Shown here: piece by piece, positions 3-62,800 of the stretch
How the letters are laid out: the number at the start of each line of letters is the position of its first letter
How positions within the stretch are numbered: position 1 is the stretch's first letter
NCBI GenBank assembly: GCA_965197525.1
Contig: OZ240211.1
Location: 1,024,001 to 1,088,000 of the forward strand
From: Nitrosopumilus sp.
Lineage (GTDB): Archaea > Thermoproteota > Nitrososphaeria > Nitrososphaerales > Nitrosopumilaceae
Reading direction: 5' to 3'
DNA: 64,000 bases
Notes under the pieces: model-generated
Seen by the model: only the letters and a program-made list of their open reading frames with translations
Database searches by the model: none
What the model was told of the DNA's origin: nothing
Made by a program: the position numbers and the translations under genes

Positions 3-1331
3 GGCAAGACCATACCCCAGATAAGAACGAAGTCTACAAAAGAGGTTCCACGGGATTACTCACAGCGAGAGTACGAAACGAAGCAGATCTGGCACAAGAG
101 ATCAGATCTCATAGATTATCTGGCAGTGGAGATGAAAGTAGGAAGCCATTATTGTGGTTCGAATAGAAGATCGTCTGACTTTTACAATCTAGTAGACCAA
201 GAGATTGCCAAGCTGCGAAGAAAGAAGGGCATAGTCGACTGGGCAAGTAATAGCCGGACCGGCATATTCAGGCTTTCGTCTGATGGACAGATGATCAAAA
301 AACCGGTCATGGATTTGGGAGATGCCCAAGTTACAAAGTCCACAAACACTGATGAGCGTTCTCTCAAGGAGACGTTCATATCCATACTTACACATGGTAA
401 AAAGGACAACACCTACAAGTTTGCCCTCGCCAGGGCGCTAATTGAATACTGTAGAATGAACCCATCCGGAACGGCCGCGTACGACATACCATACAGCTAT
501 TTTGCAGACAAGTTTCTAGAATACTATTGGCATCAGGAATGTAAGTACAGAATAAAGCAAGACTTTAAGACAAAGAGTACACCCAAGGTCATACAGGCAA
601 TACGGCACGTCTTCAAGGACAATTCCTACGGTAGTTTTGAGATGGTCAACGATGAGGAGAGACAATTAGGCAGAGACATGATAATGAAAACCGTCTTCGG
701 CCATGCCAGGTCAAAGACGTCTCTGGTCATCCCTAGATTCCAGAATGTCTCAGAGGGAAGCGGCTCCACACTGAAAAGACTGCTCTATGAGTATGACGAC
801 GATGCCAAGATTGTCCGCCTCAGACCGGAGACGTTTGAATTCTTCAAAAGCAACCACAGGATCCTCTCGATGGCAGTCCTCTCAGAGTGGGCCAAGTTCC
901 TAGAGAGAATCAACAAATCACTTCCCATGCTGGTAGCCAAGATAGAACAGGATGAGATGCACCGCGAATCTCTGGTCAAATACAGAAAGATGTACCTAGA
1001 GTACGCAAGCCACTGCTTTTACTGCGGGGACAAGCTGGAGACCAGTCACATACAGGTGGATCACTTTCTTCCCTGGTCATACATATTTGAAGATCAGCCA
1101 TGGAATCTGGTACTTGCATGCAGCAGGTGCAACCTCAAAAAGAGCGCATCTCTCCCACAGGAAGACTTTCGGGAAGAGATCATCAGAAGAAACAGCAAGT
1201 ATCGTGGACAGATACAGGAATTAGACCGTTCACTTAGAATCATAGACACAAGGCTTGGCTGGGAGAAGGAGATAGAAAACCACTATACTACCTGTAAGGA
1301 ATACGGTTTTGGCATAGTCAGACTGCCGTGA
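3..1331 (+). CDS. HNH endonuclease with N-terminal wHTH-like region, 5' partial
   Basis: Frame is open from base 3, upstream of the ORF-track start at 126. C-terminal CFYC..VDHFLPWS..WNLVLACSRCNLKK HNH motif; NTYKFALARALIE N-terminal motif. Confidence 0.8.
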   Translation, partial: GKTIPQIRTKSTKEVPRDYSQREYETKQIWHKRSDLIDYLAVEMKVGSHYCGSNRRSSDFYNLVDQEIAKLRRKKGIVDWASNSRTGIFRLSSDGQMIKKPVMDLGDAQVTKSTNTDERSLKETFISILTHGKKDNTYKFALARALIEYCRMNPSGTAAYDIPYSYFADKFLEYYWHQECKYRIKQDFKTKSTPKVIQAIRHVFKDNSYGSFEMVNDEERQLGRDMIMKTVFGHARSKTSLVIPRFQNVSEGSGSTLKRLLYEYDDDAKIVRLRPETFEFFKSNHRILSMAVLSEWAKFLERINKSLPMLVAKIEQDEMHRESLVKYRKMYLEYASHCFYCGDKLETSHIQVDHFLPWSYIFEDQPWNLVLACSRCNLKKSASLPQEDFREEIIRRNSKYRGQIQELDRSLRIIDTRLGWEKEIENHYTTCKEYGFGIVRLP

Positions 1332-1449
1332 TGTGCAAGAGGTTGTCGCCATTCTGCAGTGTCATAGCCTGATGCGATTGCGACTTTTTTGTAGAAGGAT
1401 ATAAACCAGACACAGTTAGTTTTTCGTAACTACTCATGTCATCTCCTAG

Positions 1450-1560
1450 TCTGAGCATAACTACAATCTACACAGATCTGCCAATAGTCACCGACATTGC
1501 GAATATCAGTGACTTCTGTAATTCTGAGCATAACTACAATCTACACAGATCTGCCAATAG
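1450..1560. repeat. Two perfect 38-bp direct repeats with a 35-bp spacer
   Basis: TCTGAGCATAACTACAATCTACACAGATCTGCCAATAG at 1450-1487 and 1523-1560. Confidence 0.9.
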
Positions 1561-1647
1561 GAACGGATCAGGAGAGGCGGGGACAGTTACCAATAATGCG
1601 TATACTGACATAACAAGACAGAGACAGAAAATTACACAAGTATAATA

Positions 1648-3422: not shown

Positions 3423-4244
3423 TCAGTAATTTTCGAGAATTCCAGCCTTATTTCTATGAAAATAGCCAAATTCCTTGTTTGCAGACAGATGCTGACCGTC
3501 AAAGACGGTTCCGTCACGGCATACCAAGTCCTCACCGGTACAACAACTTCCGCATATCCCTACACCACATTTCATCATTCGTTCAAGACTAGCTTGAACA
3601 AAGATATTTCTAGAATGAGCAGATTGGACAATTTTGTGCATCATGATTTCAGGACCGCATGTATAGATGCCGTCATAACTAGTAGTAGTTGTATCGACTA
3701 ATTTTTCAACCAGATCAGTTACAAATCCCTTTTCACCGTAACTGCCATCATCTGTACAAACAGTTACGCGATGATGTACATTACGTTTGAGTAGACTGTT
3801 TGCCAAATCTTCAAAAAACACCTCTTCTTTTGATTGGGCTCCAATTAGGACAGTGACGTCGTCTGAGGGTTTTACAAAGGTAAGCAATCTCATCATAGGA
3901 ACAAGACCCGTTCCTCCGCCAACTAACAAAAGCTTTCCTTCTTTGAGATCAAACGAATTTCCATACGGACCACGGATGCCAATCTGTTGACCTACTTTGG
4001 TGTTAAACAGACCAGTGGATGCAGGACCATGACGTCTTACAGTAAATGCAGCTTTGCCAGACTCTTGAGATATCATCACACTCATAGGTAACTCGTTGAT
4101 TCCAGGTATCCAAACCATTGCGAATTGTCCTGGAAGAACAGCAGACATAACTGCATCTGAAAATACCAGAGTCCGAACAGTAGGAGTCTCATCAATTACC
4201 TGTTCAATTGTAACCATTGTGGGATGATTATTGTTTCTTTGCAA
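3423..4244 (-). CDS. pyrK: Dihydroorotate dehydrogenase electron transfer subunit
   Basis: RGPYGN, GGGTG, CGP and MKCGVGICGSC [2Fe-2S] motif; adjacent to pyrD. Confidence 0.92.
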   Translation of the reverse strand: MQRNNNHPTMVTIEQVIDETPTVRTLVFSDAVMSAVLPGQFAMVWIPGINELPMSVMISQESGKAAFTVRRHGPASTGLFNTKVGQQIGIRGPYGNSFDLKEGKLLLVGGGTGLVPMMRLLTFVKPSDDVTVLIGAQSKEEVFFEDLANSLLKRNVHHRVTVCTDDGSYGEKGFVTDLVEKLVDTTTTSYDGIYTCGPEIMMHKIVQSAHSRNIFVQASLERMMKCGVGICGSCCTGEDLVCRDGTVFDGQHLSANKEFGYFHRNKAGILENY

Positions 4245-5139
4245 GACCTACCATATCCGTTATTGTAGAATGATTTTTTCGCTCCATATAATCTAAAATT
4301 CCGCTGTTAATTTCATCAAATACATCAATCCAATTATCACCTATGGCACTTCCAAGCTGAACAGCAGAGGCGCCGGCTAAAAAGAATTCCACTGCATCTT
4401 CCCATGTGTATATACCGCCACATCCTATTATTGGAACGTCGTATTTTGATGAAATTTCATAGACGCACCTTAGTGCAATAGGCTTGATTGGAGTACCAGA
4501 TAGCCCGCCAAATCTGTTACTAAGTATAGGACGTTGGGTATCAACGTTGATTGCCATTGCACGAACGGTGTTAATGGCAGTGATTGCATCTACCCCGGAA
4601 TGTATTGCGGCCTCTACGGTATCAAGATAATGACTCGTACCCAAGCCTACTTTGGCAATTACAGGAACGTCAGAGGCATTCTTTACATCAGATACAATCT
4701 TCTTTACCAATTCAAGGTCGTCACCAACTTCCAAGCCAACTTTGTCGACGTGGGGACAGGATAGGTTTAGCTCATATGCCATAACATTACAATCTTTGAA
4801 TTCATTTATCATCATCTCAAAATCTCCAGGTATAGAACCTACCAAACTCACTATTATCGGAACATCTTGGTTTGGTTTTATCATCTTGGCAAAGTTTGGT
4901 GCGCCAGGATTTGACAGACCTACTGCATTTATCCAGCCACCGTTTTTTAAACCTAGTATAGTTGGATTCGGATAGCCGTCCCAAGGCTCAGTACTGATGG
5001 ATTTAGTTACAACAGCTCCTGCACCTGACGCGTAGAGTCGTTTAAACACATCTAGTGATATCCCTAAAATTCCAGACGCCAACATTACAGGCCTGTCTAA
5101 CTGAATTGGTCCTATGAGAGTTGCAAGACTGGGTTTCAC
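4228..5139 (-). CDS. pyrD: Dihydroorotate dehydrogenase family 1B catalytic subunit
   Basis: LASG, VVTKS, NAVGLSNPG, ELNLSCPH, AINT, GGLSG, GCGGI motifs. Confidence 0.95.
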   Translation of the reverse strand: MKPSLATLIGPIQLDRPVMLASGILGISLDVFKRLYASGAGAVVTKSISTEPWDGYPNPTILGLKNGGWINAVGLSNPGAPNFAKMIKPNQDVPIIVSLVGSIPGDFEMMINEFKDCNVMAYELNLSCPHVDKVGLEVGDDLELVKKIVSDVKNASDVPVIAKVGLGTSHYLDTVEAAIHSGVDAITAINTVRAMAINVDTQRPILSNRFGGLSGTPIKPIALRCVYEISSKYDVPIIGCGGIYTWEDAVEFFLAGASAVQLGSAIGDNWIDVFDEINSGILDYMERKNHSTITDMVGLAKKQ

Positions 5140-5186
5140 TTTGATTAATAAGATTGCATTTGAATATAACAGTTGATTTAGGGTAA

Positions 5187-6755
5187 TTATATACCTAGGT
5201 TACGTTTCTGCACCAAGGTTTTTTTCTGACAGTCCAACAAATCATTCACAGCTTGGTTCTTGCCGTCTTTTTTAGAAACAACATGGTGTAAGCCATGTCT
5301 TGATTCTTCTGTCTTGTGACGATAGTCCCTACCGCCACTAATAATACTGACACTATTAGATGTGCCATTTTTATTAGCTAAAATAATATTTTCCATGCTG
5401 TCACACCTGTAGTTTCCATATCTGTCTACAAGCGGGAGCCTTCGTATGCACGGAAGTCCGTAATGTCTGATGTTTGTGCCGGCGTTATCGTCTGCATCGC
5501 ACAAAAATCCACAGTATACGCATTGAAACACATCCCTGGTAGTTCTAGAGTTGCTGTTGATCATATTGCACTTACTACACGTTATGCTGGTATAATGTGG
5601 AACAATCTCAAGCGTTTTGGTTCCGTGGTTTTCGGCAGTCATTTTTATTCTATCCCCCATTCTTCCCATACCTGCCCCGTAAATCTCCCTGTTAAGGCCG
5701 CTTTTCCGCTTTTCATTTTTTGCAGTCATATTGCCAATGTTTAGTTTTTCCATGACTATCACTCCTGTTCTCATCACAATCTGTTTGGCAAGGAAATTAT
5801 TGTGCTCGGTTCTTCTGTTGTTGAGTGTTTTCTTCATCCTCTTCAGTTTGCGATCCTCTTTTTTCCATCTGTTACTATGCAGTTTGTGGCCGTCTCTTTT
5901 TGACTGTTGTTCTGAGACTACATCGTCTTTTTTTCTCCTACAGGAATAAGGTGTCCTGTAAAAATCGGCATTTATTCCGTCATGAACGATTAGGGATCTC
6001 TTAACCCCCATGTCTATTCCGCATACGACTGTACGATCCGTATTTTTAGGTCTCTGTATTTTTAATGTCAGATGGATCTCAAACGTGCGGTTCGAATCGT
6101 TTGTATTGACAGTGATTTTTTTGGTGTTCTCTACAAGCCTGTATGATACAATGTTGGTCTGGTAGAACTTGTTGGTGCTGTTTTTGTCTTTTTCACATAC
6201 CATCTGCTTTGGAAGATTATTCAAAGACGACAACAGCTCCACCTGACCCATACCAGGCAGGTTCATGTACAGTTTTTTCCACTTTCCCATCCTTAGCGAG
6301 GGATGCTTACCGTTTACTGTTATGGATGCATGTTTTGCATTTTTGGCGTTTCTGAACAAACTGTTTCTGTCAATCCATTTGTTTGGTTTGAGATTTTTAA
6401 ATGACGTGTGCCAGTTGTGGTTCTTGCCACCAGTCTTTTTTGCCCAGTTTCGTACTCTGCGTTTTTTTGCGCAGGATTTCAAATGTTTGTCTGCCGTATC
6501 ATGCCCCTGTTGGAACGCAGTTGTTGCCACATTGGTGTGATATCTGTTGCTCCATGGCATGGTGTGATGTATGTCAGTAATGGTACGGCTTGTCTTGATT
6601 TTGTCATATTTTTCAACCAGTCCTGCCTCTACGCCCATGTTGAAAAAATACGTCTGAAAGTTTGCAATCCTGCGTGCCTTCAATGACAGTTCTTTTGTCT
6701 GCCTTGGTTTTACAATCACTGTTCTATAAATAAAATCTTCTATATCTTTTTCCAT
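5187..6755 (-). CDS. tnpB: TnpB-family RNA-guided endonuclease, about 522 aa
   Basis: RuvC-I GIDMG, RuvC-II VMEKLNIGNM, TSITCSKC..FQCVYCG zinc finger, RuvC-III DADDNAGTNI. ATG 6755 lies 20-29 bp behind a TTATATATAA box; the ORF-track ATG at 6830 is outside the element. Confidence 0.9.
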   Translation of the reverse strand: MEKDIEDFIYRTVIVKPRQTKELSLKARRIANFQTYFFNMGVEAGLVEKYDKIKTSRTITDIHHTMPWSNRYHTNVATTAFQQGHDTADKHLKSCAKKRRVRNWAKKTGGKNHNWHTSFKNLKPNKWIDRNSLFRNAKNAKHASITVNGKHPSLRMGKWKKLYMNLPGMGQVELLSSLNNLPKQMVCEKDKNSTNKFYQTNIVSYRLVENTKKITVNTNDSNRTFEIHLTLKIQRPKNTDRTVVCGIDMGVKRSLIVHDGINADFYRTPYSCRRKKDDVVSEQQSKRDGHKLHSNRWKKEDRKLKRMKKTLNNRRTEHNNFLAKQIVMRTGVIVMEKLNIGNMTAKNEKRKSGLNREIYGAGMGRMGDRIKMTAENHGTKTLEIVPHYTSITCSKCNMINSNSRTTRDVFQCVYCGFLCDADDNAGTNIRHYGLPCIRRLPLVDRYGNYRCDSMENIILANKNGTSNSVSIISGGRDYRHKTEESRHGLHHVVSKKDGKNQAVNDLLDCQKKTLVQKRNLGI

Positions 6756-6774
6756 CCAGTTAATAGTCTGTGTA

Positions 6775-6784
6775 TTATATATAA
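6775..6784 (-). promoter_or_regulatory. Putative TATA box for tnpB, internal to the cassette
   Basis: TTATATATAA 20-29 bp upstream of ATG 6755; archaeal spacing. Confidence 0.55.
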
Positions 6785-6866
6785 TTGACGTATAATGTAA
6801 TCCAAGTATGTAATTCCCTGATTTAGGCATGGTACTTTTTTAAAGGTGGTTTAAAAGTAATTAGGT

Positions 6867-8162
6867 ATGTATTCTGTAATATTAACAGAACTAGGGATTT
6901 CTGTATTCAATGATGGAAAGCTAGACAAGGCATTTGCATTCTCAAACGCAGTAAAAGAGTATCTTTTAATAAAAAACAAGGAATCAAAACTCAACGAGCT
7001 TGTAAACTATCTAACAACGCTTCAGAGAGGAGTGTCAGTTAGTGATGAATCATTACTTGCGATTTTAAAAAAACATTCTATTGACTGTTACATTATGGAC
7101 GCATCAGAGTTGGAGACTGTTCAGGCATCAAAACCTCAGATTATTGTTGATTCGGGTTTTGCCTCAAACATGCAAGATACGCTTGGAAAACTCAGAGGAT
7201 TTGCATTAGAATTATCATCCTCAAAAGTCACAGAGATATCAGAGAGTCCCGATTTACACATAATTCAAGCAATCAACTCTTTAGACGAGGTTGACAAGAT
7301 TATAAATCAGCTCAGCTCAAGACTAAAAGAGTGGTACGGGTTGCATTTTCCAGAGTTGGAGAATGTGATTGATAGCATTAATGGATATGCACAAATAGTA
7401 ATGGCAGGCAAGCGAGAGTCATTAACAAAACAGGTTTTTGAAGATGCAGGGTTTCCAGAAACAAAAGTAGAGATGCTGGTGCTAATCTCATCGAAGAGCA
7501 GAGGAGGAGATATCTCAGACATTAATTTGACAATTGTACAGTCAATTGCAAAGCAGATTTTAGACTTTCATGATTTGCGTAAGAAGCTTGAAGATCATGT
7601 AGAGTCAGAGATGCAGAGAATTGCACCCAACCTCACAATAATACTGGGAGCAGCGGTAGGCGCAAGAATGTTGGGAAGGGCAGGCAGCCTAAAGAGGTTG
7701 GCGTTGCTTCCTGCAAGTACGATACAAGTTTTGGGAGCAGAAAAAGCGTTGTTTAGATCGCTAAAAACTGGAGCCCAACCGCCAAAACATGGATTGTTGT
7801 TTCAACACGCAGCAGTACATGCAGCTCCTAGATGGCAGAGAGGAAAGATTGCACGTGCAGTCGCTGCAAAGACAGTGATTGCTGCAAGGGTAGATGTGTA
7901 TGGAGAAGGAGTAAACAGTACGTTGCTTGAAAAACTCAACATACGAGTAGATGAGATTAGTAAAAAGTATGAGAATCCAACGGAAAAAGATATCAGACAG
8001 CCGTCATCTCAGCCTATGTTCAAGCGCGGAGATAGAGATGGGTACAAGGGCAACAGGGAAGACAGGGATAGGTTCAGAACCGGTAGCAGAAGAGAGAGCC
8101 GAGGGAATAACGAGAGATCAAATTCAAAGAAGAAGAAGAGAAAGAAGTTTGGAAGAAGATAA
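6867..8162 (+). CDS. nop5: Box C/D RNP protein Nop5 (Nop56/58)
   Basis: WYGLHFPEL, IAPNL, ASTIQVLGAEKALFR, PKHG motifs; precedes fibrillarin. Confidence 0.95.
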   Translation: MYSVILTELGISVFNDGKLDKAFAFSNAVKEYLLIKNKESKLNELVNYLTTLQRGVSVSDESLLAILKKHSIDCYIMDASELETVQASKPQIIVDSGFASNMQDTLGKLRGFALELSSSKVTEISESPDLHIIQAINSLDEVDKIINQLSSRLKEWYGLHFPELENVIDSINGYAQIVMAGKRESLTKQVFEDAGFPETKVEMLVLISSKSRGGDISDINLTIVQSIAKQILDFHDLRKKLEDHVESEMQRIAPNLTIILGAAVGARMLGRAGSLKRLALLPASTIQVLGAEKALFRSLKTGAQPPKHGLLFQHAAVHAAPRWQRGKIARAVAAKTVIAARVDVYGEGVNSTLLEKLNIRVDEISKKYENPTEKDIRQPSSQPMFKRGDRDGYKGNREDRDRFRTGSRRESRGNNERSNSKKKKRKKFGRR

Positions 8163-33301: not shown

Positions 33302-35065
33302 TCAAGCCACTATAACACCCAGTCGAATCAGAAATTGTATTGTTTGTATGAAAACATCATCGTCATCTAGTGTACCGTCTGCCCACCATCCTGCATTGGT
33401 CCTAACCCAGTCAGGAATAGCAGATAAGTTTGAAGGAGATGAGGAAACATCAGTCTCAGGAATATGTATAATGTTATTCGCAATTAAAAATTGGATCCCC
33501 AAGATAAAGGCATCATCATCGAGCGTACCGTCGGCCCACCATCCTGCAGCAGTCTTAACCCAGTCAGGAATTGACGGTGCTAGTGTGTCTTGTGGCAGTA
33601 TTAAAGGAAAGCCATCACTAACTTTTAGAAACGCCGATCCTGTTCCAGAGTACTTTGACGTATAATCAAACCCAACGCCATATACTAGGACATCAACTCT
33701 AATTGTATCCGGGGATGGAATGTAGATGTTTTGAATATCTGACCCTTCAGCTGCTACAATTCCCAGAGTTATTGTACTGTCATCGTATCCATTTCGTGCT
33801 ATCTCTTGGCCGGATTCATCAAAGACCGTGTATGCATATCTTATATCGGTAATCGGTTCTCCATATTCATTGAAGAATGCAAATTCAAATGGGATCTCTT
33901 GATCCACACCATACGAACCATCATATGAAATAGTTACGTTGGTGGGAACCCGTTCAAAGTTTTCTGAATCGACAAGATAAAAATCAGCAGATATCATCTC
34001 AACTTCAACAAATGGAACAAATTTTAGATTCATTATCTTACTTTCATAGTTATCAGGGCCAAGAGATTCGTTGATTCTGTCTAATTCAGCGTTTGCTAAA
34101 AGAAGATGAAAAATATTAGTTACATCGTTGTTGTATGGATCAACTAGTAATGTTCTTTGACTAGTTTTTACACCATTCACATAGCCGTGGATCTGTTTGT
34201 CTTCAGCAAATGGCGCAAATGATTTTGGAACTCTGACCTCCTCACGAACTAGCCTGACTTTATCGATGTGACCTGGATCCCAATCAAATGGCATATCAAA
34301 ATTAATAGAGTTATCTGTTGTATCAAAATGGAAATTTTCAACATCATCATAATACGTCTTGACAACTATTGGTATTTCTTCTGCGTCTTCAGTTTGAATT
34401 AGAAAGTCATATTCCTGTGAGATAGTAACAAACACGTTGTAGCTTAATAATTCTGTAACCAGTGTACGAGGACTGTGCATACCATCGATATCTATCCTGA
34501 TGTTGTATAAACCACCTCTGTCAAATATCGGTCCTGTAATACTAGGCATTTTGCAGACATCAAGATTATCGTCATTGCATTGAATGCCAAACACGTAAAG
34601 TGCGCCCGGTGCTAAAGCATGTTCAGATCCGTCATAAATGGTGCATCGCCACAGATCAGATTCGTTACAGTCGGATTGAGGACTAATCTCGATGTATAAT
34701 TGACCATCATCATCGTAAAATAAACTTCTTGCAAGTAAGTCTTGGTTCTTCCAAATTTCGACACGATATGTCACTTGTTCCAAAGTTGTGTTAGTAAGAG
34801 TATCAAATAACCTAACCTTCAAAATAACGTCGTCAAAACTATCGACTGCAAGATAATCCGGGAAGGTACGAACGCTCACCGTGACTTCCATCCCATCATA
34901 ACTTATGGGTTCGGGAAGACTTATGTAATCTCCAGGGTGATGTCCAAAGGCTGCGGGAAAAACAACAGAGATTGCAAAAACGCCGATTGCAATAACGCCA
35001 AGCAGTCCAGACACATAACGCAATAGTAAAACTAGACAAAGATCATATTTAAGAATGGTATTCAA
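33302..35065 (-). CDS. Exported protein with two C-terminal IPxWV..AGWWADG repeats (thaumarchaeal surface-protein module)
   Basis: Signal-like N-terminus; IPDWVKTAAGWWADG and IPDWVRTNAGWWADG. Confidence 0.8.
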   Translation of the reverse strand: MNTILKYDLCLVLLLRYVSGLLGVIAIGVFAISVVFPAAFGHHPGDYISLPEPISYDGMEVTVSVRTFPDYLAVDSFDDVILKVRLFDTLTNTTLEQVTYRVEIWKNQDLLARSLFYDDDGQLYIEISPQSDCNESDLWRCTIYDGSEHALAPGALYVFGIQCNDDNLDVCKMPSITGPIFDRGGLYNIRIDIDGMHSPRTLVTELLSYNVFVTISQEYDFLIQTEDAEEIPIVVKTYYDDVENFHFDTTDNSINFDMPFDWDPGHIDKVRLVREEVRVPKSFAPFAEDKQIHGYVNGVKTSQRTLLVDPYNNDVTNIFHLLLANAELDRINESLGPDNYESKIMNLKFVPFVEVEMISADFYLVDSENFERVPTNVTISYDGSYGVDQEIPFEFAFFNEYGEPITDIRYAYTVFDESGQEIARNGYDDSTITLGIVAAEGSDIQNIYIPSPDTIRVDVLVYGVGFDYTSKYSGTGSAFLKVSDGFPLILPQDTLAPSIPDWVKTAAGWWADGTLDDDAFILGIQFLIANNIIHIPETDVSSSPSNLSAIPDWVRTNAGWWADGTLDDDDVFIQTIQFLIRLGVIVA

Positions 35066-36828: not shown

Positions 36829-37629
36829 AGACAAAGTTAACAGATAATAGAATAATGAATAGTGAATGATAGTGATTATAGTGAATCATGATAGTGATCA
36901 ATCGTCATCATCGTAAAAGGGAGCATCTTAACCATCATCATCATCATCTAGATTGTCATCAAAGTCATCTTCAAAATCATTATCCAGATAGTCAGGTAGC
37001 GACATATTATGTCAATAGCTGCGATACTGTAAAAACTTTGTTAAACAAAAATAAGGCATAGAGATAAAAATTTCAAATAAATGTATGGGTGGTGATATTA
37101 CTCAGTCAAAATTGTGTAGGTGTTTTATACAAAAAGCAGTTAGAAGATTGACGCCAAAGATATGTAACAGCAATAGTGACATGATCAGCAAAATATAATG
37201 TAATGTAAGCGAATGCAAAATCATAAAGGCAGTGCTGCATGATTTTGTACGTGTTGTATGACTAATACGCATTGCACATATTACTAAACTAATTTGCAGT
37301 GTGCGTTCATAGAAAAAATCCATATGCATCAAAGAACTTTCCTATCAAAAGACACAGCTGTGGTTTAAGAGAACCTTCATGTTTGAGAAAACATGCGATT
37401 ATCAAAACTTGTCAGGGTATAATTTAACAAAGAAAGCACATCTGAGTTGAATCTCATAACTGATTTTGATTAGAGAAAGAGGAAGAGAGATGATGGTGCC
37501 ATTTACAGCACAAAAGACACCCTTGTTTTCAGCATTGTTTTTTGAACAAACCAGCACATCTACGATTTGCACTACATTTTAAAGACTAGCCTCAAAAAAG
37601 CAATAAATTACTATGAAAACGATGTAAAC

Positions 37630-39001
37630 TAGTTTGTTTCATAACATGCCACAGTTCTGACCCGATTGTATAGCATCTAGCCCATACTTTCATCATACCA
37701 TTGAGATCACCCTCTGAGTTATGTCTACGAACTGGTTGTAGCGCTGGATCTTTAACGCTATCTCTTGAATAATGTTATCCATTGTTTTTGCCCTTACCGA
37801 ACTTCCAAATATTCTCTTGAACGCAGAGAAGAATATCTCCACCTGCCATCGGGAACCGTATTCCGCACGTTTTTTCCACTCGTTTTGGTTTTCCGCACGT
37901 TCCTTGATATCCATCTCATGGAATTTGGCAAGGCTTGTAGTGCCGCCACCCAGCTGGTCAAGCGCTGCAATACCGCGTTCCCTGCTTATCCCCATTGCCT
38001 TGTATTCTGCATTGCGTCTTATCCTGATGATAGGTGTAATGCCGTACTCTTTGCATATCTGAAAATTCTCCCTGCTGTCATATCCTGCATCTGCCTTGAT
38101 CTTAATTTTAACATGATCTGGCGGTGGCCCAGTACCTGCAGCCATTACTGTTGCGCGTCGTACATCTGGATCTATTCCCTTGTTCCTCAGTGCCTGTCTT
38201 ATCAGGGGCTCGAACTGTGGGGAATCACCAATCTTTTCGTCAGTTACCGTGAATCCAAGCACCCGCATGGTGTCCTGCTGTATCATGACACTGAGTCTTA
38301 TGAAACCTGACTTGGTCTTTATCTTGTATTTGTATCGTATGTAGTCGCCTTTGGCAGACGGGGACATGCCTGTTCCATCTATGATGATCTGCAACACACT
38401 GTCTTTGCTCCTGACGGTTATGGTTCTGTCTGTAATGGATGTATCAAGACTCTTCGTTCTTCTCCACAGGGTAACGTGATCAGGTGCGTTTTCCTCACCC
38501 AGTGCAGCTATTGCCATTCCTTCCACACATCTGAATGCAATGCCCAGCTGTAGACGTATTCCGATTATGGCCATTATCAGGCACTCTGGATAGATGAACG
38601 GATGACCGTTTTTGCCTGCATTCATCCGTTTAAGTTCATCTACCATGTTGTCAGGAAGAACCAAATGTATCATCTTTCCTCGTTCCACATATCTTGCATC
38701 ATTTTGCGCATGGCTCATGTGTAGCCGCGATTTTTGTTTGGTTCTGGTACCATCATGCGTCATACCCGTCTACCTCCAGAACGCAGCACATAACTAATTT
38801 CGATTAACTTGCTGGAGAAAAGAAACTCACACGTAACATTAAATTGTCTTCCTGTGAAATATGGTTGGTGCGGATATCCTTTCACGCTTGTCGTTGTAGA
38901 TGCTGAAAGGACCATTAGCTCCAGATCTTTAAATGCAGTGGCAGTTAATCTGCAACTTGAATATCTATGACACTGTTTGTGGCAGGTTATGAAACAAACT
39001 A
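37630..39001 (-). mobile_element. IS5-family insertion sequence, intact
   Basis: 24-bp TIRs 37630-37653 and 38978-39001 (1 mismatch); TSD ATGTAAAC at 37622-37629 and 39002-39009. Confidence 0.92.
37693..38763 (-). CDS. IS5-family DDE transposase
   Basis: IDGTG, ADAGYDS, RWQVEIFFSAFKR triad. Confidence 0.9.
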   Translation of the reverse strand: MTHDGTRTKQKSRLHMSHAQNDARYVERGKMIHLVLPDNMVDELKRMNAGKNGHPFIYPECLIMAIIGIRLQLGIAFRCVEGMAIAALGEENAPDHVTLWRRTKSLDTSITDRTITVRSKDSVLQIIIDGTGMSPSAKGDYIRYKYKIKTKSGFIRLSVMIQQDTMRVLGFTVTDEKIGDSPQFEPLIRQALRNKGIDPDVRRATVMAAGTGPPPDHVKIKIKADAGYDSRENFQICKEYGITPIIRIRRNAEYKAMGISRERGIAALDQLGGGTTSLAKFHEMDIKERAENQNEWKKRAEYGSRWQVEIFFSAFKRIFGSSVRAKTMDNIIQEIALKIQRYNQFVDITQRVISMV

Positions 39002-39121
39002 ATGTAAACAACTCTGTTTCCTAAGTTACATGCAACACAGGCCACCATCCGAGTGATTTTGCTTATGTCATTGCCTTTCCTCCTACACTGCGGTCTTTGT
39101 GGCGGGTTTTAGACTGATACA

Positions 39122-40281
39122 CTATCTTTGGTGTGCCGTTCCGTTCTCAATTGCCGTATCGATCATCTGATTGTACAAACACACCTTTCCGTATATCTCC
39201 GTCTTGACGTTTTCCCACTTTCGTGCCATTATAGACTCCCCTAATACCCGCTTGAACGTAGAGAACGCAGTCTCTACTGTCCACCTGTCGTTGTATCCTG
39301 ATTCCCTGCGCCACATATTCTGCCGTTCCTTCTTTTCCTTGCGCGTAAGATCTGCAAACTTGTGTTCTGACTTTTTATCTATACCACTGATTCCGGTTCG
39401 CATTAATTTTGCTGGAAACGCAAACGGATGCATGTCTCTTTTTATCTATATGCTCAAAACTGCCAAGCTGCTCGAACCCAGCCTTTTTGCGGGACATGCA
39501 TCCGTTTGCGTTTCCAGCAAAATTAATGCGAACCGGAATCAGTGGTTTAATCTCGTTTTTGTTGCAGTAGTTGTAAATATCTCGTGTATCATACGCACCA
39601 TCGGCACCTTGGTATCAGTAGATGTCTCCACGTTTGATGATTTTTCTGCGTTTGCAAAAGCTTGTTCCACTAGTTCTTCAAACTGTGGGGAATCTCCACA
39701 CTTGTCGTCAGTTATGACCACTGCATAGATCTTCTTGGTTTTAGCATCTACACCGACATGCAGTTTTATGAATCCGCGCCTCACTCCCCACTTTTCTGCC
39801 ATCCAGTCGCCGCGGTTTGTAGGCTTGAGCCCGGTTGAATCAAACGCAAACAAGCTTATCTCGGTTCTCGTTTTGCCGTCTGTAAACCATGCAGCAGTAG
39901 TGTTACCGCTACCGTTGTCATCTATTGTACAGTTGAGTTTTGTCATCTTTTCTGAAATGCCGAGTATGTAGGCGCATTTTCCTTGCCGACGATTGCCTCT
40001 GCCACACCCTCCAACTGTCTGTACGGGATACCTGTGGCGTTTCGGAACAGAACAGCTGCTGCAACGCATGCGTCTGAGAATGTAAACGGGTGGCCTACCT
40101 TTCCACAGTTCATCTTATCAAGCCCCTGCACCATGAGCTCCTCGTTTATCTGAAGCATAAACAACTTGCCGCGATCTATGTATTTGCGGTTATCATACTG
40201 GAGTCTGCATTCGTTTGAACTGTAAGATTTTTTAGTACCATGCTTGCCTAGTTTGTCTGGAGAGGATGTGTTTTTGGTCAT
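39122..40281 (-). pseudogene. IS5-family transposase pseudogene
   Basis: FDSTGLK..KLHVGVD, ADGAYD and RWTVETAFS are split across frames; 1-bp frameshifts near 39947 and 39607 plus a 67-bp insertion at 39371-39437. Confidence 0.88.
39383..39546. repeat. Perfect 54-bp inverted repeat with 56-bp loop
   Basis: 39383-39436 is the exact reverse complement of 39493-39546; 13-bp direct repeat CTTTTTATCTATA at 39371-39383 and 39438-39450. Confidence 0.93.
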
Positions 40282-40449
40282 GATTGATAGTCTGATTGAC
40301 AACGCACCTCTCTGTTCAATACAGTTTTCTATTGAAAGTGTTTGATACAACGTTCAAATTCAGTTGTTCTATGCCTAATCTGATCTGATTTTGGATTAGT
40401 TAGGCGTGGTTGATGATAATTAGGAAACAGAGTTATGTAAACAGCACAC

Positions 40450-44894: not shown

Positions 44895-45668
44895 TCATTC
44901 AGTTGCTGGTGCGGGTTCAGGTTCTTCAGCTGCCGGTGTTGGTGCTGGTGCGGGTTCAGGTTCTTCAGCTGCCGGTGTTGGTGCTGGTGCGGGTTCAGGT
45001 TCTTCAGCTGCCGGTGTTGGTGCTGGTGCGGGTTCAGGTTCTTCAGCTGCCGGTGTTGGTGCTGGTGCGGGTTCAGGTTCTTCAGCTGCCGGTGTTGGTG
45101 CTGGTGCGGGTTCAGGTTCTTCAGCTGCCGGTGTTGGTGCTGGTGCGGGTTCAGGTTCTTCAGCTGCCGGTGTTGGTGCTGGTGCGGGTTCAGGTTCTTC
45201 AGCTGCCGGTGTTGGTGCTGGTGCGGGTTCAGGTTCTTCAGCTGCCGGTGTTGGTGCTGGTGCGGGTTCAGGTTCTTCAGCTGCCGGTGTTGGTGCTGGT
45301 GCGGGTTCAGGTTCTTCAGCTGCCGGTTCGCCCACAGTAGCAATTTCATCTGTCGATACAGCATTATCATCATTCGTTGACTCTACAACGGTTTCATTAA
45401 TCGATTCTTGAACGTTATTACTTGGATCAGATTGTTCTTCGGCTTGCTGCTCAGCTTTTGAGGCTTCAATTCTATCTTGTTTGATCTTTTCTTCACGAAT
45501 CTCTTTTTTAGTATATTTTGTAATGTATCCAGCAACTTTATTTTTTAACTTTTTAGAGCGTACAATAGAAATTTCGTCTAAAACTTTTTTATTTTCAGCA
45601 AAATCTTCTCCAAAACGTGATTTGTGTACAGCGAGAACTTTGTTTGAAAGGCTCTTTATTCTATCCAC
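44895..45668 (-). CDS. rps17e: 30S ribosomal protein S17e with long acidic Pro/Ala repeat tail
   Basis: DFAENKKVL..SKKLKNKVAGYIT; probable GTG start 45668. Confidence 0.9.
   Translation of the reverse strand: MDRIKSLSNKVLAVHKSRFGEDFAENKKVLDEISIVRSKKLKNKVAGYITKYTKKEIREEKIKQDRIEASKAEQQAEEQSDPSNNVQESINETVVESTNDDNAVSTDEIATVGEPAAEEPEPAPAPTPAAEEPEPAPAPTPAAEEPEPAPAPTPAAEEPEPAPAPTPAAEEPEPAPAPTPAAEEPEPAPAPTPAAEEPEPAPAPTPAAEEPEPAPAPTPAAEEPEPAPAPTPAAEEPEPAPAPTPAAEEPEPAPATE
44905..45327 (-). repeat. 39-bp perfect tandem repeat, 10.8 copies (AAEEPEPAPAPTP)
   Basis: GCTGGTGCGGGTTCAGGTTCTTCAGCTGCCGGTGTTGGT units over 423 bp. Confidence 0.95.
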
Positions 45669-46803: not shown

Positions 46804-46983
46804 CTGTGCCTGTTTGATAGAATTCCTAAAACGAGTAGAACAAGCAACGGATGATGAGGATGGTTGGCAATGCCTAGTATTCTAAGACGGTATTTATCAT
46901 CTAAATATTTAAAATAATACTAACCAAGTCAAGACGCTAGCATACTTTGCAGACAAAAAATAAATGCAGATAAGATGAAAGTA

Positions 46984-48076
46984 TACTGATAATCAAAAGT
47001 TTATCGGTATGTAAATTTTACCAGACCACAAACCGTATTGGTTACATCATACCAAACTTATGTATGGACACAAAACCCGAAGATCTCAAAAAAGCGTACA
47101 AGAAGGAAAAGGACATCAGAATCAAAGTTAGAATGGTTGCAGTCAACATGGTCGTCTTTAACAACGAAAGCATTACGCATACGGCAGATTTGCTCATGCA
47201 ATGTCCTGATTGGGTGTCCTCGTGGGTCAAACGCTTCAAGGAAGAGGGCCTAGAAGGCCTCCGGGATCTTCCCCGCACCGGACGGCCGCCCAAAGTGTCA
47301 CTCAAAGAGATCAACGGAATTCTCTCAAAGACAAATTACATCACTACACCGAAGATACTTCATGAAGACATCCACAAAAAATATGGGATAAAATACCACA
47401 TGACATCTGTCAGAAGAATACTGCAACGCTGTAACATGTCTGCCAAGACACCGCGACGTGTACACGTCAACAGAGCAAACATGGATGATATACGTAGATG
47501 GCAACGCAACGCAAAAAAGCACATTTCACGCCTGACAAAGGAGGGTTTTACCATCCTAATACAAGACGAGTCAATCTTTACCCATGATCCTATTACTGGT
47601 GTCAAGTACTGGTCATTGAAGGGAGAGCGGATCACAGTCGGATACAATGGGAAACATAAAAAATCCATAGTGTACGGAGCGATTACAATTGATGGACGAA
47701 GGTTATTCCGTACATACGACAAGTTTGACAAGGAGACGTTTCTTGCATATCTCAAGGAGTTACATCGACGTTTTGGACGAATATTGGTAATAACAGACAG
47801 TGCACGGCAACATACTGCATTTATAGTAAATGATTTTGTATCACAAAACAAGGATGTAAGAATGTTATACCTGCCGACTGCAACACCAGAGCTTAGTGCC
47901 ATTGAAGAGTACTGGCATCAGGCAAAACGTGACATATTGGTATCAGAATATTATGCCACGTTTGAGAATATGCGTCATGTGTTATCACAATACATCAGGA
48001 CATCAGGACCAAGGCTTGACGTGATGAGATATATTGGCAGGAATCCCTGATCCCGATAAACTTTTGATTATCAGTA
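46984..48076 (+). mobile_element. IS630-family insertion sequence
   Basis: Perfect 24-bp TIRs TACTGATAATCAAAAGTTTATCGG at 46984-47007 and 48053-48076, flanked by TA at 46982-83 and 48077-78. Confidence 0.93.
47064..48050 (+). CDS. IS630 transposase
   Basis: HTH, GRPPK, QDES, TDSARQH, PELSAIEEYW. Confidence 0.92.
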   Translation: MDTKPEDLKKAYKKEKDIRIKVRMVAVNMVVFNNESITHTADLLMQCPDWVSSWVKRFKEEGLEGLRDLPRTGRPPKVSLKEINGILSKTNYITTPKILHEDIHKKYGIKYHMTSVRRILQRCNMSAKTPRRVHVNRANMDDIRRWQRNAKKHISRLTKEGFTILIQDESIFTHDPITGVKYWSLKGERITVGYNGKHKKSIVYGAITIDGRRLFRTYDKFDKETFLAYLKELHRRFGRILVITDSARQHTAFIVNDFVSQNKDVRMLYLPTATPELSAIEEYWHQAKRDILVSEYYATFENMRHVLSQYIRTSGPRLDVMRYIGRNP

Positions 48077-61567: not shown

Positions 61568-61590
61568 GATGCAGAATTTGGTATTACATA

Positions 61591-62675
61591 GAGTGGCGTC
61601 ATTAAGTCTTTGCAATTGCTTTTCTGAACATATACTGTTCAATATTCTGATTGAATGTAGCGGTTCTTAGATATATCATTGCGGCTCGTGCACGGTCACT
61701 AACATGTTCATGGTGTTCATACATGAAAGGTTGAATCTTTAACTGGTGCCAACATTCTTCAATTGCATTAAATTCAGGACATCCTGTAGGCAAATACATT
61801 ATTCGCAGTCTAGAACTGTTTGCTTTTACAAATTTTTTAAACTTTTTTGTTTTATGTTGGGGTGCTGCATCCATTACAATGGCTACCTTGTCAGATAGTT
61901 CCAATAGTTTTTTGACAAATTTGAGAAACGTCGGACCGTTGAATTTTTTTTTCTGTAAAAAATATTGATGTGAGTCTGATATTGCACCATAAATTACACG
62001 TCTCTGATGATCTCCAAAATAAACTCGGAGTATTTTTTGACCCACCGGCGACCATGGACCGCGCTTTGTGACATAGTCATGCATCAATATTGATTCATCC
62101 TGTACATACAGCTCAAAACCGTCCCGTTTTACGCATGAAATCCACCGTTTTAGGGATTTTTGCCACTCTTCTATCTGTTCACTAGATGCCTTGTTTTTGT
62201 GTGTGGAATCAGGTACCTTTGGAGTAAAGTTACGACGACGCAATATGTCACGTATTCCAGATTCGGTGTATTTTACTCCTGTATCTTTTTTTATTTTATA
62301 TACAAGCTGCTTTGGAAAAATACCGTTTTTGACATTTGTTAAAAATTCTGTAATCTTATGATTGGCTATTTTTGGCGGGCGTCCAGATCTTGGTTTCTCA
62401 TACAATCCTACAACTCCAAATTCTTTAAATCGCATAACCCAATTTTTAATTGTGTTGTAAGATTTGTAAAACAGCTGTGCGATTGTTGAAATCGTTTCAT
62501 CTTCCTCTACGACATTTAACACTGCAAGCATTCGTTCTTTTGCCTTTGAGTTTAATTCCCTCTTATATACACATATTAATTCCACATTCTGGTTTTCCAC
62601 GATGGGCGATAAATGTTTCAAGCTATAAATGTTTCTAGTGTTTTTGAAAATTGCAAAGACTTTTTGACGTCACTC
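61591..62675 (-). mobile_element. IS630-family insertion sequence
   Basis: 27-bp TIRs 61591-61617 and 62649-62675 (3 mismatches), flanked by TA at 61589-90 and 62676-77. Confidence 0.92.
61602..62621 (-). CDS. IS630 transposase
   Basis: GRPPK, QDES, MDAAPQH, PEFNAIEECW. Confidence 0.92.
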   Translation of the reverse strand: MKHLSPIVENQNVELICVYKRELNSKAKERMLAVLNVVEEDETISTIAQLFYKSYNTIKNWVMRFKEFGVVGLYEKPRSGRPPKIANHKITEFLTNVKNGIFPKQLVYKIKKDTGVKYTESGIRDILRRRNFTPKVPDSTHKNKASSEQIEEWQKSLKRWISCVKRDGFELYVQDESILMHDYVTKRGPWSPVGQKILRVYFGDHQRRVIYGAISDSHQYFLQKKKFNGPTFLKFVKKLLELSDKVAIVMDAAPQHKTKKFKKFVKANSSRLRIMYLPTGCPEFNAIEECWHQLKIQPFMYEHHEHVSDRARAAMIYLRTATFNQNIEQYMFRKAIAKT

Positions 62676-62800
62676 TAAGAAGATCAAAAATAGAGATGTA
62701 AAACAAGAGACGATGTATTGTCATTTGAAGTAATTAGATATGTGTAGAGTTATCTGTATGTAGTCTGTATCATTTTTTGCAACATCAATGTCAGCAAATA

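Follow-up and report, generated by a model that had tools for sequence, protein, structure and literature searches.

We describe a mobile element built around a gene for TnpB, an RNA-guided nuclease, in a 64,000-nucleotide stretch of the genome of Nitrosopumilus sp. (GenBank assembly GCA_965197525.1, contig OZ240211.1, positions 1,024,001 to 1,088,000). This whole stretch is called the window below, and positions refer to it unless they are given as genome positions. The genome from which it comes (G000) is a complete archaeal genome of 2.21 Mb with a GC content of 39.6%; it is very rich in insertion sequences (IS) and is tied to sponge samples via its sequencing runs. The element occupies positions 5182-6818 (1637 bp) between pyrD and a Nop-domain gene, and is bounded by terminal inverted repeats (TIRs) and a target-site duplication. 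Its only long open reading frame (ORF) is tnpB. The features of the locus are as follows.

4228-5139, minus strand: dihydroorotate (DHO) dehydrogenase gene, pyrD, the left neighbor of the element
5174-5181, no strand: left copy of the target-site duplication, TGATTTAG, exact over 8 bp
5182-5206, plus strand: TIR on the 3' side of tnpB, containing the last tnpB codons and the stop codon
5187-6755, minus strand: tnpB, 522 amino acids (aa), the sole gene of the element (ATG at 6753-6755; stop codon at 5187-5189, within the left TIR)
5228-5338, minus strand: conserved structured RNA with covariation, overlapping the 3' end of tnpB and read as an omega RNA scaffold
6774-6786, minus strand: TATA-like AT-rich box separating the TIR from the tnpB ATG, a putative archaeal promoter judged from sequence only
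6794-6818, minus strand: TIR on the 5' side of tnpB, with the minus-strand reading GGGAATTACATACTTGGATTACATT
6819-6826, no strand: right copy of the target-site duplication, TGATTTAG, exact over 8 bp
6867-8162, plus strand: Nop-domain protein gene (nop5), the right neighbor of the element, divergent from pyrD

Boundaries and parts of the tnpB element

Compared with the reverse-complemented 6794-6818, the TIR at 5182-5206 agrees at 19 of 25 positions; of the six mismatches, five are transitions. In a chance control of 200,000 random 25-mer pairs drawn from this window at the same spacing, pairs matched at 6.5 positions on average and at 17 positions at best; none reached 19. In the other copies of the element, presented below, the left TIR has the consensus GGGAATTATATACCTAGGTTAC; only the window copy has a T as the third base of its left end, where the others read GGG. 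A preliminary description of this locus had proposed both the 25-bp TIRs and the exact 8-bp duplication, and both are confirmed by the sequence, by the alignment of copies and by the chance control.

The same description had noted that removal of 5182-6826 restores a compact pyrD-nop5 promoter region of 82 bp, and the empty site was indeed recovered. The spacer is unbroken and 78-85 bp long in 27 genomes of the same genus, where it is collinear with the 82-bp reconstruction. Additionally, in a DNA contig from a related strain (~94-95% identical), position 5176 is fused directly to 6823. The sequence TGATTTAG is present as a single copy at the empty site both in the relatives and in this strain. 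In the same DNA run of that strain, the element itself (96% identical) is found at another locus, with the duplication CATATGGC.

The earlier view of tnpB as the sole cargo stands in that it is the only gene of the element, but its start had to be reassigned from ATG 6830 of the mechanically called ORF to the ATG at 6753-6755. The encoded protein has the Pfam domains OrfB_IS605 and Cas12f1-like TNB. Its RuvC D/E/D triad (D248, E336 and D422) and its CxxC...CxxC zinc finger (C393, C396, C412 and C415) are intact, and all of these residues are invariant in the same nine diverse relatives, whose identity reaches down to 22%. Furthermore, the tnpB frame is open in at least five copies of the element in G000. 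A search for related loci with the alignment of closer relatives returned a single bacterial locus of no relevance.

The 3' end of tnpB also carries signs of a structured RNA. We aligned the last 260 nucleotides (nt) of eight relatives (42-98% protein identity) and found blocks that are conserved at the nucleotide level more than the protein requires; across the last ~65 codons (5190-5393), synonymous-codon identity rises from ~0.5 to 0.72-0.84. RNAalifold folded this alignment into five helices comprising 32 pairs, with 95% of cells paired and compensatory changes in 10 pairs. In pairing, in covariation score and in the count of compensated pairs alike, none of 500 shuffles came up to the real alignment, and in slid-partner controls the pairing fell to 28-44%. 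An Rfam scan of positions 5000-7000 gave nothing above noise. We read the folded last ~110-180 nt of tnpB as a putative scaffold of the guide RNA, or omega RNA, in the canonical layout of OMEGA systems (short for obligate mobile element-guided activity). Between the last helix and the end of the element lie ~46 nt, TIR included. The guide RNA probably reads through the 3' TIR and would continue past 5182 into the flank, so that the guide would consist of the duplication and the adjacent DNA.

In a sponge metatranscriptome (run X1), the best-covered contig on positions 5185-5367 joins the 3' end of tnpB to 254 nt of the flank of another copy. This contig is compatible with guide read-through; such contigs reveal neither the strand nor the ends of an RNA, and they may stem from carried-over DNA. 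Taken together, the element is most likely a non-autonomous OMEGA cassette consisting of tnpB and a guide-RNA scaffold, with a promoter adjoining one end, and its TnpB and guide RNA would form a compact and intact pair.

Copies, derivatives and ends shared by deep TnpB lineages

As the preliminary description had anticipated, other tnpB copies with new 8-bp duplications are present genome-wide in G000. There are seven further copies, 94-98% identical, whose alignment edges run exactly from TIR to TIR as in window 5182-6818. The intact copies have exact 8-bp flanking repeats that differ from one to the next (ATTGAATT, TTTTTTTA, AATTGATT, GTTAACAT, TTGATTAC and TTCAGTAG), and one copy is cut by a 16.8-kb insert, its halves being reunited by the common repeat TTCAGTAG. 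Two internally deleted or miniature forms with GGGAAT/GGGGAT ends and exact 8-bp duplications accompany them. A 386-bp derivative (genome 562158-562543), which likewise aligns exactly from TIR to TIR, has the duplication GTTAACAT; of the 5' side it retains 313 bp, of the 3' side no more than 73 bp, and because so little of the 3' side is kept, it lacks the guide-RNA scaffold. A 165-bp miniature element (genome 891809-891973, L018) has related ends, the duplication TTTCATAT and little beyond the ends.

Other elements lie within or next to some of these copies. In the split copy (genome 33774-50590, L003/L011), the IS-rich insert of ~16.8 kb lies between the 5'-side TIR and the start of tnpB, and element bases 1578-1583 are found on both sides of it, which may represent a 6-bp duplication. 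A 1.3-kb IS (genome 1331426-1332729, L006) with CAGTAGTCGGAAATGTAC ends and a gene for a DDE_Tnp_1 transposase of 417 aa disrupts one tnpB copy; the 386-bp derivative directly adjoins a further copy of that IS.

The same kind of end is found on TnpB proteins that are only distantly related. For this comparison we used G000 and three other complete genomes (G151, G235 and G265) from two genera within its archaeal family. G000 itself harbors a second tnpB-only family, represented by a 1350-bp element (genome 1984842-1986191) with the same end motif, a duplication matching at seven of eight positions and a TnpB 29% identical to that of the window. In the three other genomes and in metagenome contigs, we found tnpB-only units with GGGAATTATATAC ends and 8-bp duplications, encoding TnpBs of 440-564 aa; in most such units the tnpB frame closes within the TIR (..TGT ATA TAA TTCCC). 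The terminal 13-mer GGGAATTATATAC is found 8-44 times per genome, as against 0-1 for the reversed control.

The TnpB lineages between GGGAATTATATAC ends are just 25-30% identical to one another, and at least four deep lineages share one kind of end in this archaeal family. The preliminary description had pictured a nuclease captured by a DDE element and moved in trans. The IS1595-type ends discussed below agree with that picture, but capture was not a single event, since the same ends are found on several such divergent lineages. Judged from these sequences, ends of the GGGAATTATATAC type are older than any single tnpB lineage.

The insertion sites have a signature of their own. When 22 insertions are oriented by tnpB, G stands immediately 5' of the duplication (-1) in 13 of them and T or G at -2 in 18, and the duplication opens with T in 13. 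No mirror image of the G/T signal was seen on the 3' side of the duplication among these insertions, and upstream of the duplications we found no fixed pentamer resembling a target-adjacent motif (TAM), just this weak one-sided signal. Since orientation should not matter to a transposase acting on symmetric ends, a one-sided signature suggests a filter linked to TnpB. The signal is modest, and it hints at a TAM-like filter on the persistence of insertions.

A probable IS1595 link and other possible movers

A search for IS1595 transposases across the whole archaeal family revealed elements with the ends of the cassettes. In G373, a 2046-bp element (L119 354-2399) begins and ends with GGGAATTATATACAATAGTGACGT, is flanked by the duplication TTTGGTTT, and carries a 318-aa transposase with DDE_Tnp_IS1595 and Zn-ribbon domains, together with ~1 kb of passenger DNA. 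G386 holds a 2131-bp relative in two 99.9%-identical copies (L112 and L118) with different 8-bp duplications. Complete elements of this type thus have 8-bp duplications and ~1 kb of passenger DNA, some of them with passenger genes. In seven IS1595 loci (in G373, G386 and G142), the start of the transposase gene is preceded at a distance of ~35-40 nt by the exact 13-mer GGGAATTATATAC. Furthermore, the left TIR of the window matches the end beside the IS1595 transposase gene of L100 at 20 of 22 positions, and 23 nt of TIR are common to a miniature element of G235 and the IS1595 end of L113. The layout of TIR, TATA-like box and ATG is also common to the L119 transposase gene and the tnpB of the cassette, which suggests that tnpB takes the place of the transposase.

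The window end GGGAATTAT fits the presumed end consensus of the ISNwi1 group of IS1595, ggnnatTAT. The cassette resembles this group in its 8-bp duplications and GG-starting ends, an assignment that we make presumptively, and its autonomous relatives resemble it in combining a zinc-ribbon DDE transposase with passenger DNA. It differs from the family in that it has no transposase and in that what it carries is an RNA-guided nuclease together with the guide RNA. In the ISNwi1-like group of the IS1595 family (ISfinder; Siguier et al. 2009), 8-bp duplications, GG-starting ends and passenger genes are the general pattern.

On the strength of these shared ends, we consider it probable that the window element carries the TIRs of an IS1595 subgroup and is moved by an IS1595-type transposase encoded elsewhere. 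Such a transposase would bind the GGGAATTATATAC ends of the cassette and, at insertion, would cut the target with an 8-bp stagger, leaving TGATTTAG duplicated between pyrD and nop5. A helper of this kind would have to act in G000, whether by cut-and-paste or by copying; an open IS1595 frame of this genome that is 69% identical to the L119 transposase speaks in favor of this reading. TnpB, in turn, would probably aid the persistence of the cassette, for example by cutting empty alleles.

The IS1595-type transposase with matching ends that the preliminary description had anticipated thus exists in related genomes, with the identical 13-mer and 8-bp duplications, but not in G000, and several observations weigh against movement by such an enzyme. 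In G000, no transposase gene was found between or beside GGGAAT-type ends, and the sites with at most two mismatches to the 13-mer all bound tnpB or miniature elements or are orphan ends. The two IS1595 genes of this genome (genome 338467-339324 and 615163-616173) have flanks without GGGAAT ends; the second, which is the 69%-identical frame, lies directly 3' of a tRNA-Leu gene, and the only inverted repeat it shows is weak and unlike those of the cassettes. G265 carries cassettes, and the IS1595 search there gave no match. The cassette copies of G151 are 99.5% identical, yet this genome has just a broken IS1595/IS6 chimera. Lastly, the 339-aa-type IS1595 elements of G235 have unrelated ends.

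Two of these loci call for further description. The chimera in G151 (L050, G151:C1:115500-117800, 437-1567, minus strand) is a 376-aa frame that combines an N-terminal ~200 aa of IS1595 type (58% to L119) with an IS6-like helix-turn-helix, and is probably a dead gene. In G000, orphan ends GGGGATTATATACATGGGTATAC (genome 614150-614182 and 1395901-1395933) are situated ~0.93-0.98 kb upstream of IS1595 gene copies. We did not count them as IS1595 ends because the intervening DNA differs between the loci and includes the tRNA-Leu gene in one.

A different source of mobility would be the SWIM-DDE transposases of the IS6-like type, whose insertions likewise produce 8-bp duplications. Genes of this type (DDE_Tnp_IS240 plus SWIM) are present in G000, G151, G235 and G265, all of which bear cassettes and some of which have no intact IS1595 gene. 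In addition, ~30 tnpB-only elements of another G000 family have GGTTCTGT ends that match those of an autonomous IS6-like element at genome 746475-748444. However, the IS6-like ends that could be defined in the four genomes all start with GGTTCT and have just the GG in common with GGGAATTATATAC, whereas the IS1595 elements have 13-23 nt in common with the cassettes. We therefore regard movement of the cassette by an IS6-like enzyme as unlikely.

The ~30 copies of this tnpB-only family of G000 are 1.2-1.3 kb long and have GGTTCTGT-type TIRs (for example, genome 616697-618028 and 479412-480617, L016), and the autonomous IS6-like element with the same ends has the duplication CTATTGTG. Like the window cassette, these elements combine tnpB alone with TIRs and an 8-bp duplication; they differ in having another TIR, an IS6-like partner with matching ends in the genome and a TnpB of ~370-400 aa. 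We also noted two single-copy, diverged SWIM-DDE (IS6-like) genes at genome 583854-585988 and 1596155-1598627, which have no recognizable TIRs and are each accompanied by a conserved neighbor of 317-324 aa. These may be domesticated or immobile transposase pairs.

A DDE transposase with matching ends may also be unneeded, if the cassette owes its spread to an enzyme of the host, to an unlinked one or to TnpB, an RNA-guided break with templated repair being one conceivable way. The ~80 end-motif sites in the four complete genomes bound no transposase gene, near-identical cassettes exist in G151 alongside no intact IS1595 gene, and the 22 insertion sites are one-sided relative to tnpB, all of which would fit such a route. 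Set against this, DDE transposition is classically recognized by symmetric TIRs combined with 8-bp duplications that vary from site to site, and IS1595 elements with the same ends do exist. Moreover, a guide taken from the old flank cannot by itself steer insertion to unrelated new sites, and the one-sided signature is equally expected if TnpB merely filters the insertions that persist. We consider this route improbable.

Because the cassettes of G151 and G265 occur without an intact IS1595 gene and the insertion sites are asymmetric with respect to tnpB, we also considered a more active part for the nuclease, in which TnpB and its guide RNA drive the copying of the cassette, the break being repaired from a cassette-bearing template, or join in the processing of its ends, and are not passive cargo. 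We give this idea little credence.

That the element is an ordinary IS200/IS605 (IS1341-type) tnpB element, with a TIR and direct repeat due to chance or to a conserved target motif, is almost certainly wrong: although tnpB-only elements are usually of the IS1341 type and several duplications hold TTGAT-like strings, no two of at least eight independent insertions share their exact 8-bp duplication, and the TIR match lies far past chance (0 of 200,000 random pairs). Y1 TnpA (PF01797) had no match in G000, G151, G235 or G265, whereas control genomes matched, and serine recombinase/resolvase (PF00239) had none in G000; IS256 and ISL3 transposases were also searched for, and none were found. Membership in IS200/IS605 (IS1341 group) is thus ruled out by the 25-bp TIRs, the 8-bp duplications and the missing Y1 TnpA, and membership in IS607 by the TIRs, the duplications and the lack of a serine recombinase in G000. 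The absence of IS605-type ends, as proposed in the preliminary description, likewise held, none being found. The cassette shares with IS1341-type elements a tnpB as the sole gene and an omega RNA scaffold overlapping its 3' end. In contrast, those elements have no TIRs or duplications, insert on the 3' side of a constant 4-5-nt motif and depend on Y1 TnpA, all of which is at odds with what is seen here.

TnpB in duplication-making DDE transposons

None of the families ISL2, IS630 and IS1031 is expected to make 8-bp duplications. These three are the DDE partners of TnpB given in a 2026 review (PMC13565253), and IS630 is the partner named in the main text of Altae-Tran et al. 2023, PNAS (PMC10691335). 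According to that main text, six DDE-associated TnpB branches (DDE-1 to DDE-6) have inverted terminal repeats, and solo TnpBs have near-identical ends, implying mobilization in trans. The cassettes are like these branches, as described there, in that TnpB lies inside TIR elements, its 3' end is near the transposon end and transposase-less copies share ends with transposase-encoding elements; they differ in their IS1595-type ends and in the presence of deep TnpB lineages in one archaeal family. From what the main text gives, the cassettes may belong to one of its DDE branches.

A literature search for IS1595 together with TnpB returned only incidental co-mentions and no paper naming the partnership, PMC10691335 being covered by its main text. 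The general design, a DDE-associated TnpB whose solo copies are mobilized in trans, was published in 2023, and IS1595, as suggested by our sequence comparisons, would be a partner family absent from the literature found. No element carrying both a transposase and tnpB between these ends was seen in the examined genomes.

The parallel to the eukaryotic Fanzors drawn in the preliminary description is sound in that TnpB lies between DDE-type ends, but the idea was already present in Altae-Tran et al. 2023 (PMC10691335). Fanzor1 (Bao and Jurka 2013, PMC3627910; Saito 2023; Jiang 2023, PMC10530073) resembles the cassette as a TnpB-family nuclease placed between TIRs and duplications, with a guide RNA that runs toward the transposon end. 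The differences are that our case is archaeal, that its RuvC-II glutamate is in the canonical position and that the transposon superfamily is another one.

If the proposed partnership is correct, IS1595 would join the known DDE hosts of TnpB. The current explanation of this nuclease, from which Cas12 descends, lies in the scarless excision of IS605 and IS607 elements, after which it cuts the emptied site and the transposon is copied back. What TnpB gains from, or contributes to, DDE transposons that make duplications is a question raised by the present family. With its many independent insertions, its empty sites and miniature derivatives, its four or more deep TnpB lineages and its autonomous IS1595 relatives, the family makes this question testable, and one may ask whether the one-sided G/T signal is a TAM and whether TnpB homes on sites that keep one copy of the duplication. 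The family would additionally be a source of compact, intact pairs of TnpB and guide RNA from mesophilic marine archaea.

Two minor observations concern the surroundings of these elements. In several genomes, IS1595 elements and TnpB cassettes repeatedly have genes or fragments of DNA methyltransferases (N6_N4_Mtase) as neighbors (L100 2031-2738, L089 5738-6463 and L093 1-319). Within the window, self-BLAST showed that the stretches 33374-34821, 37626-40434, 44904-45327, 46981-47452 and 61581-62678 are repeated elsewhere in the genome, and these are probably other insertion sequences.

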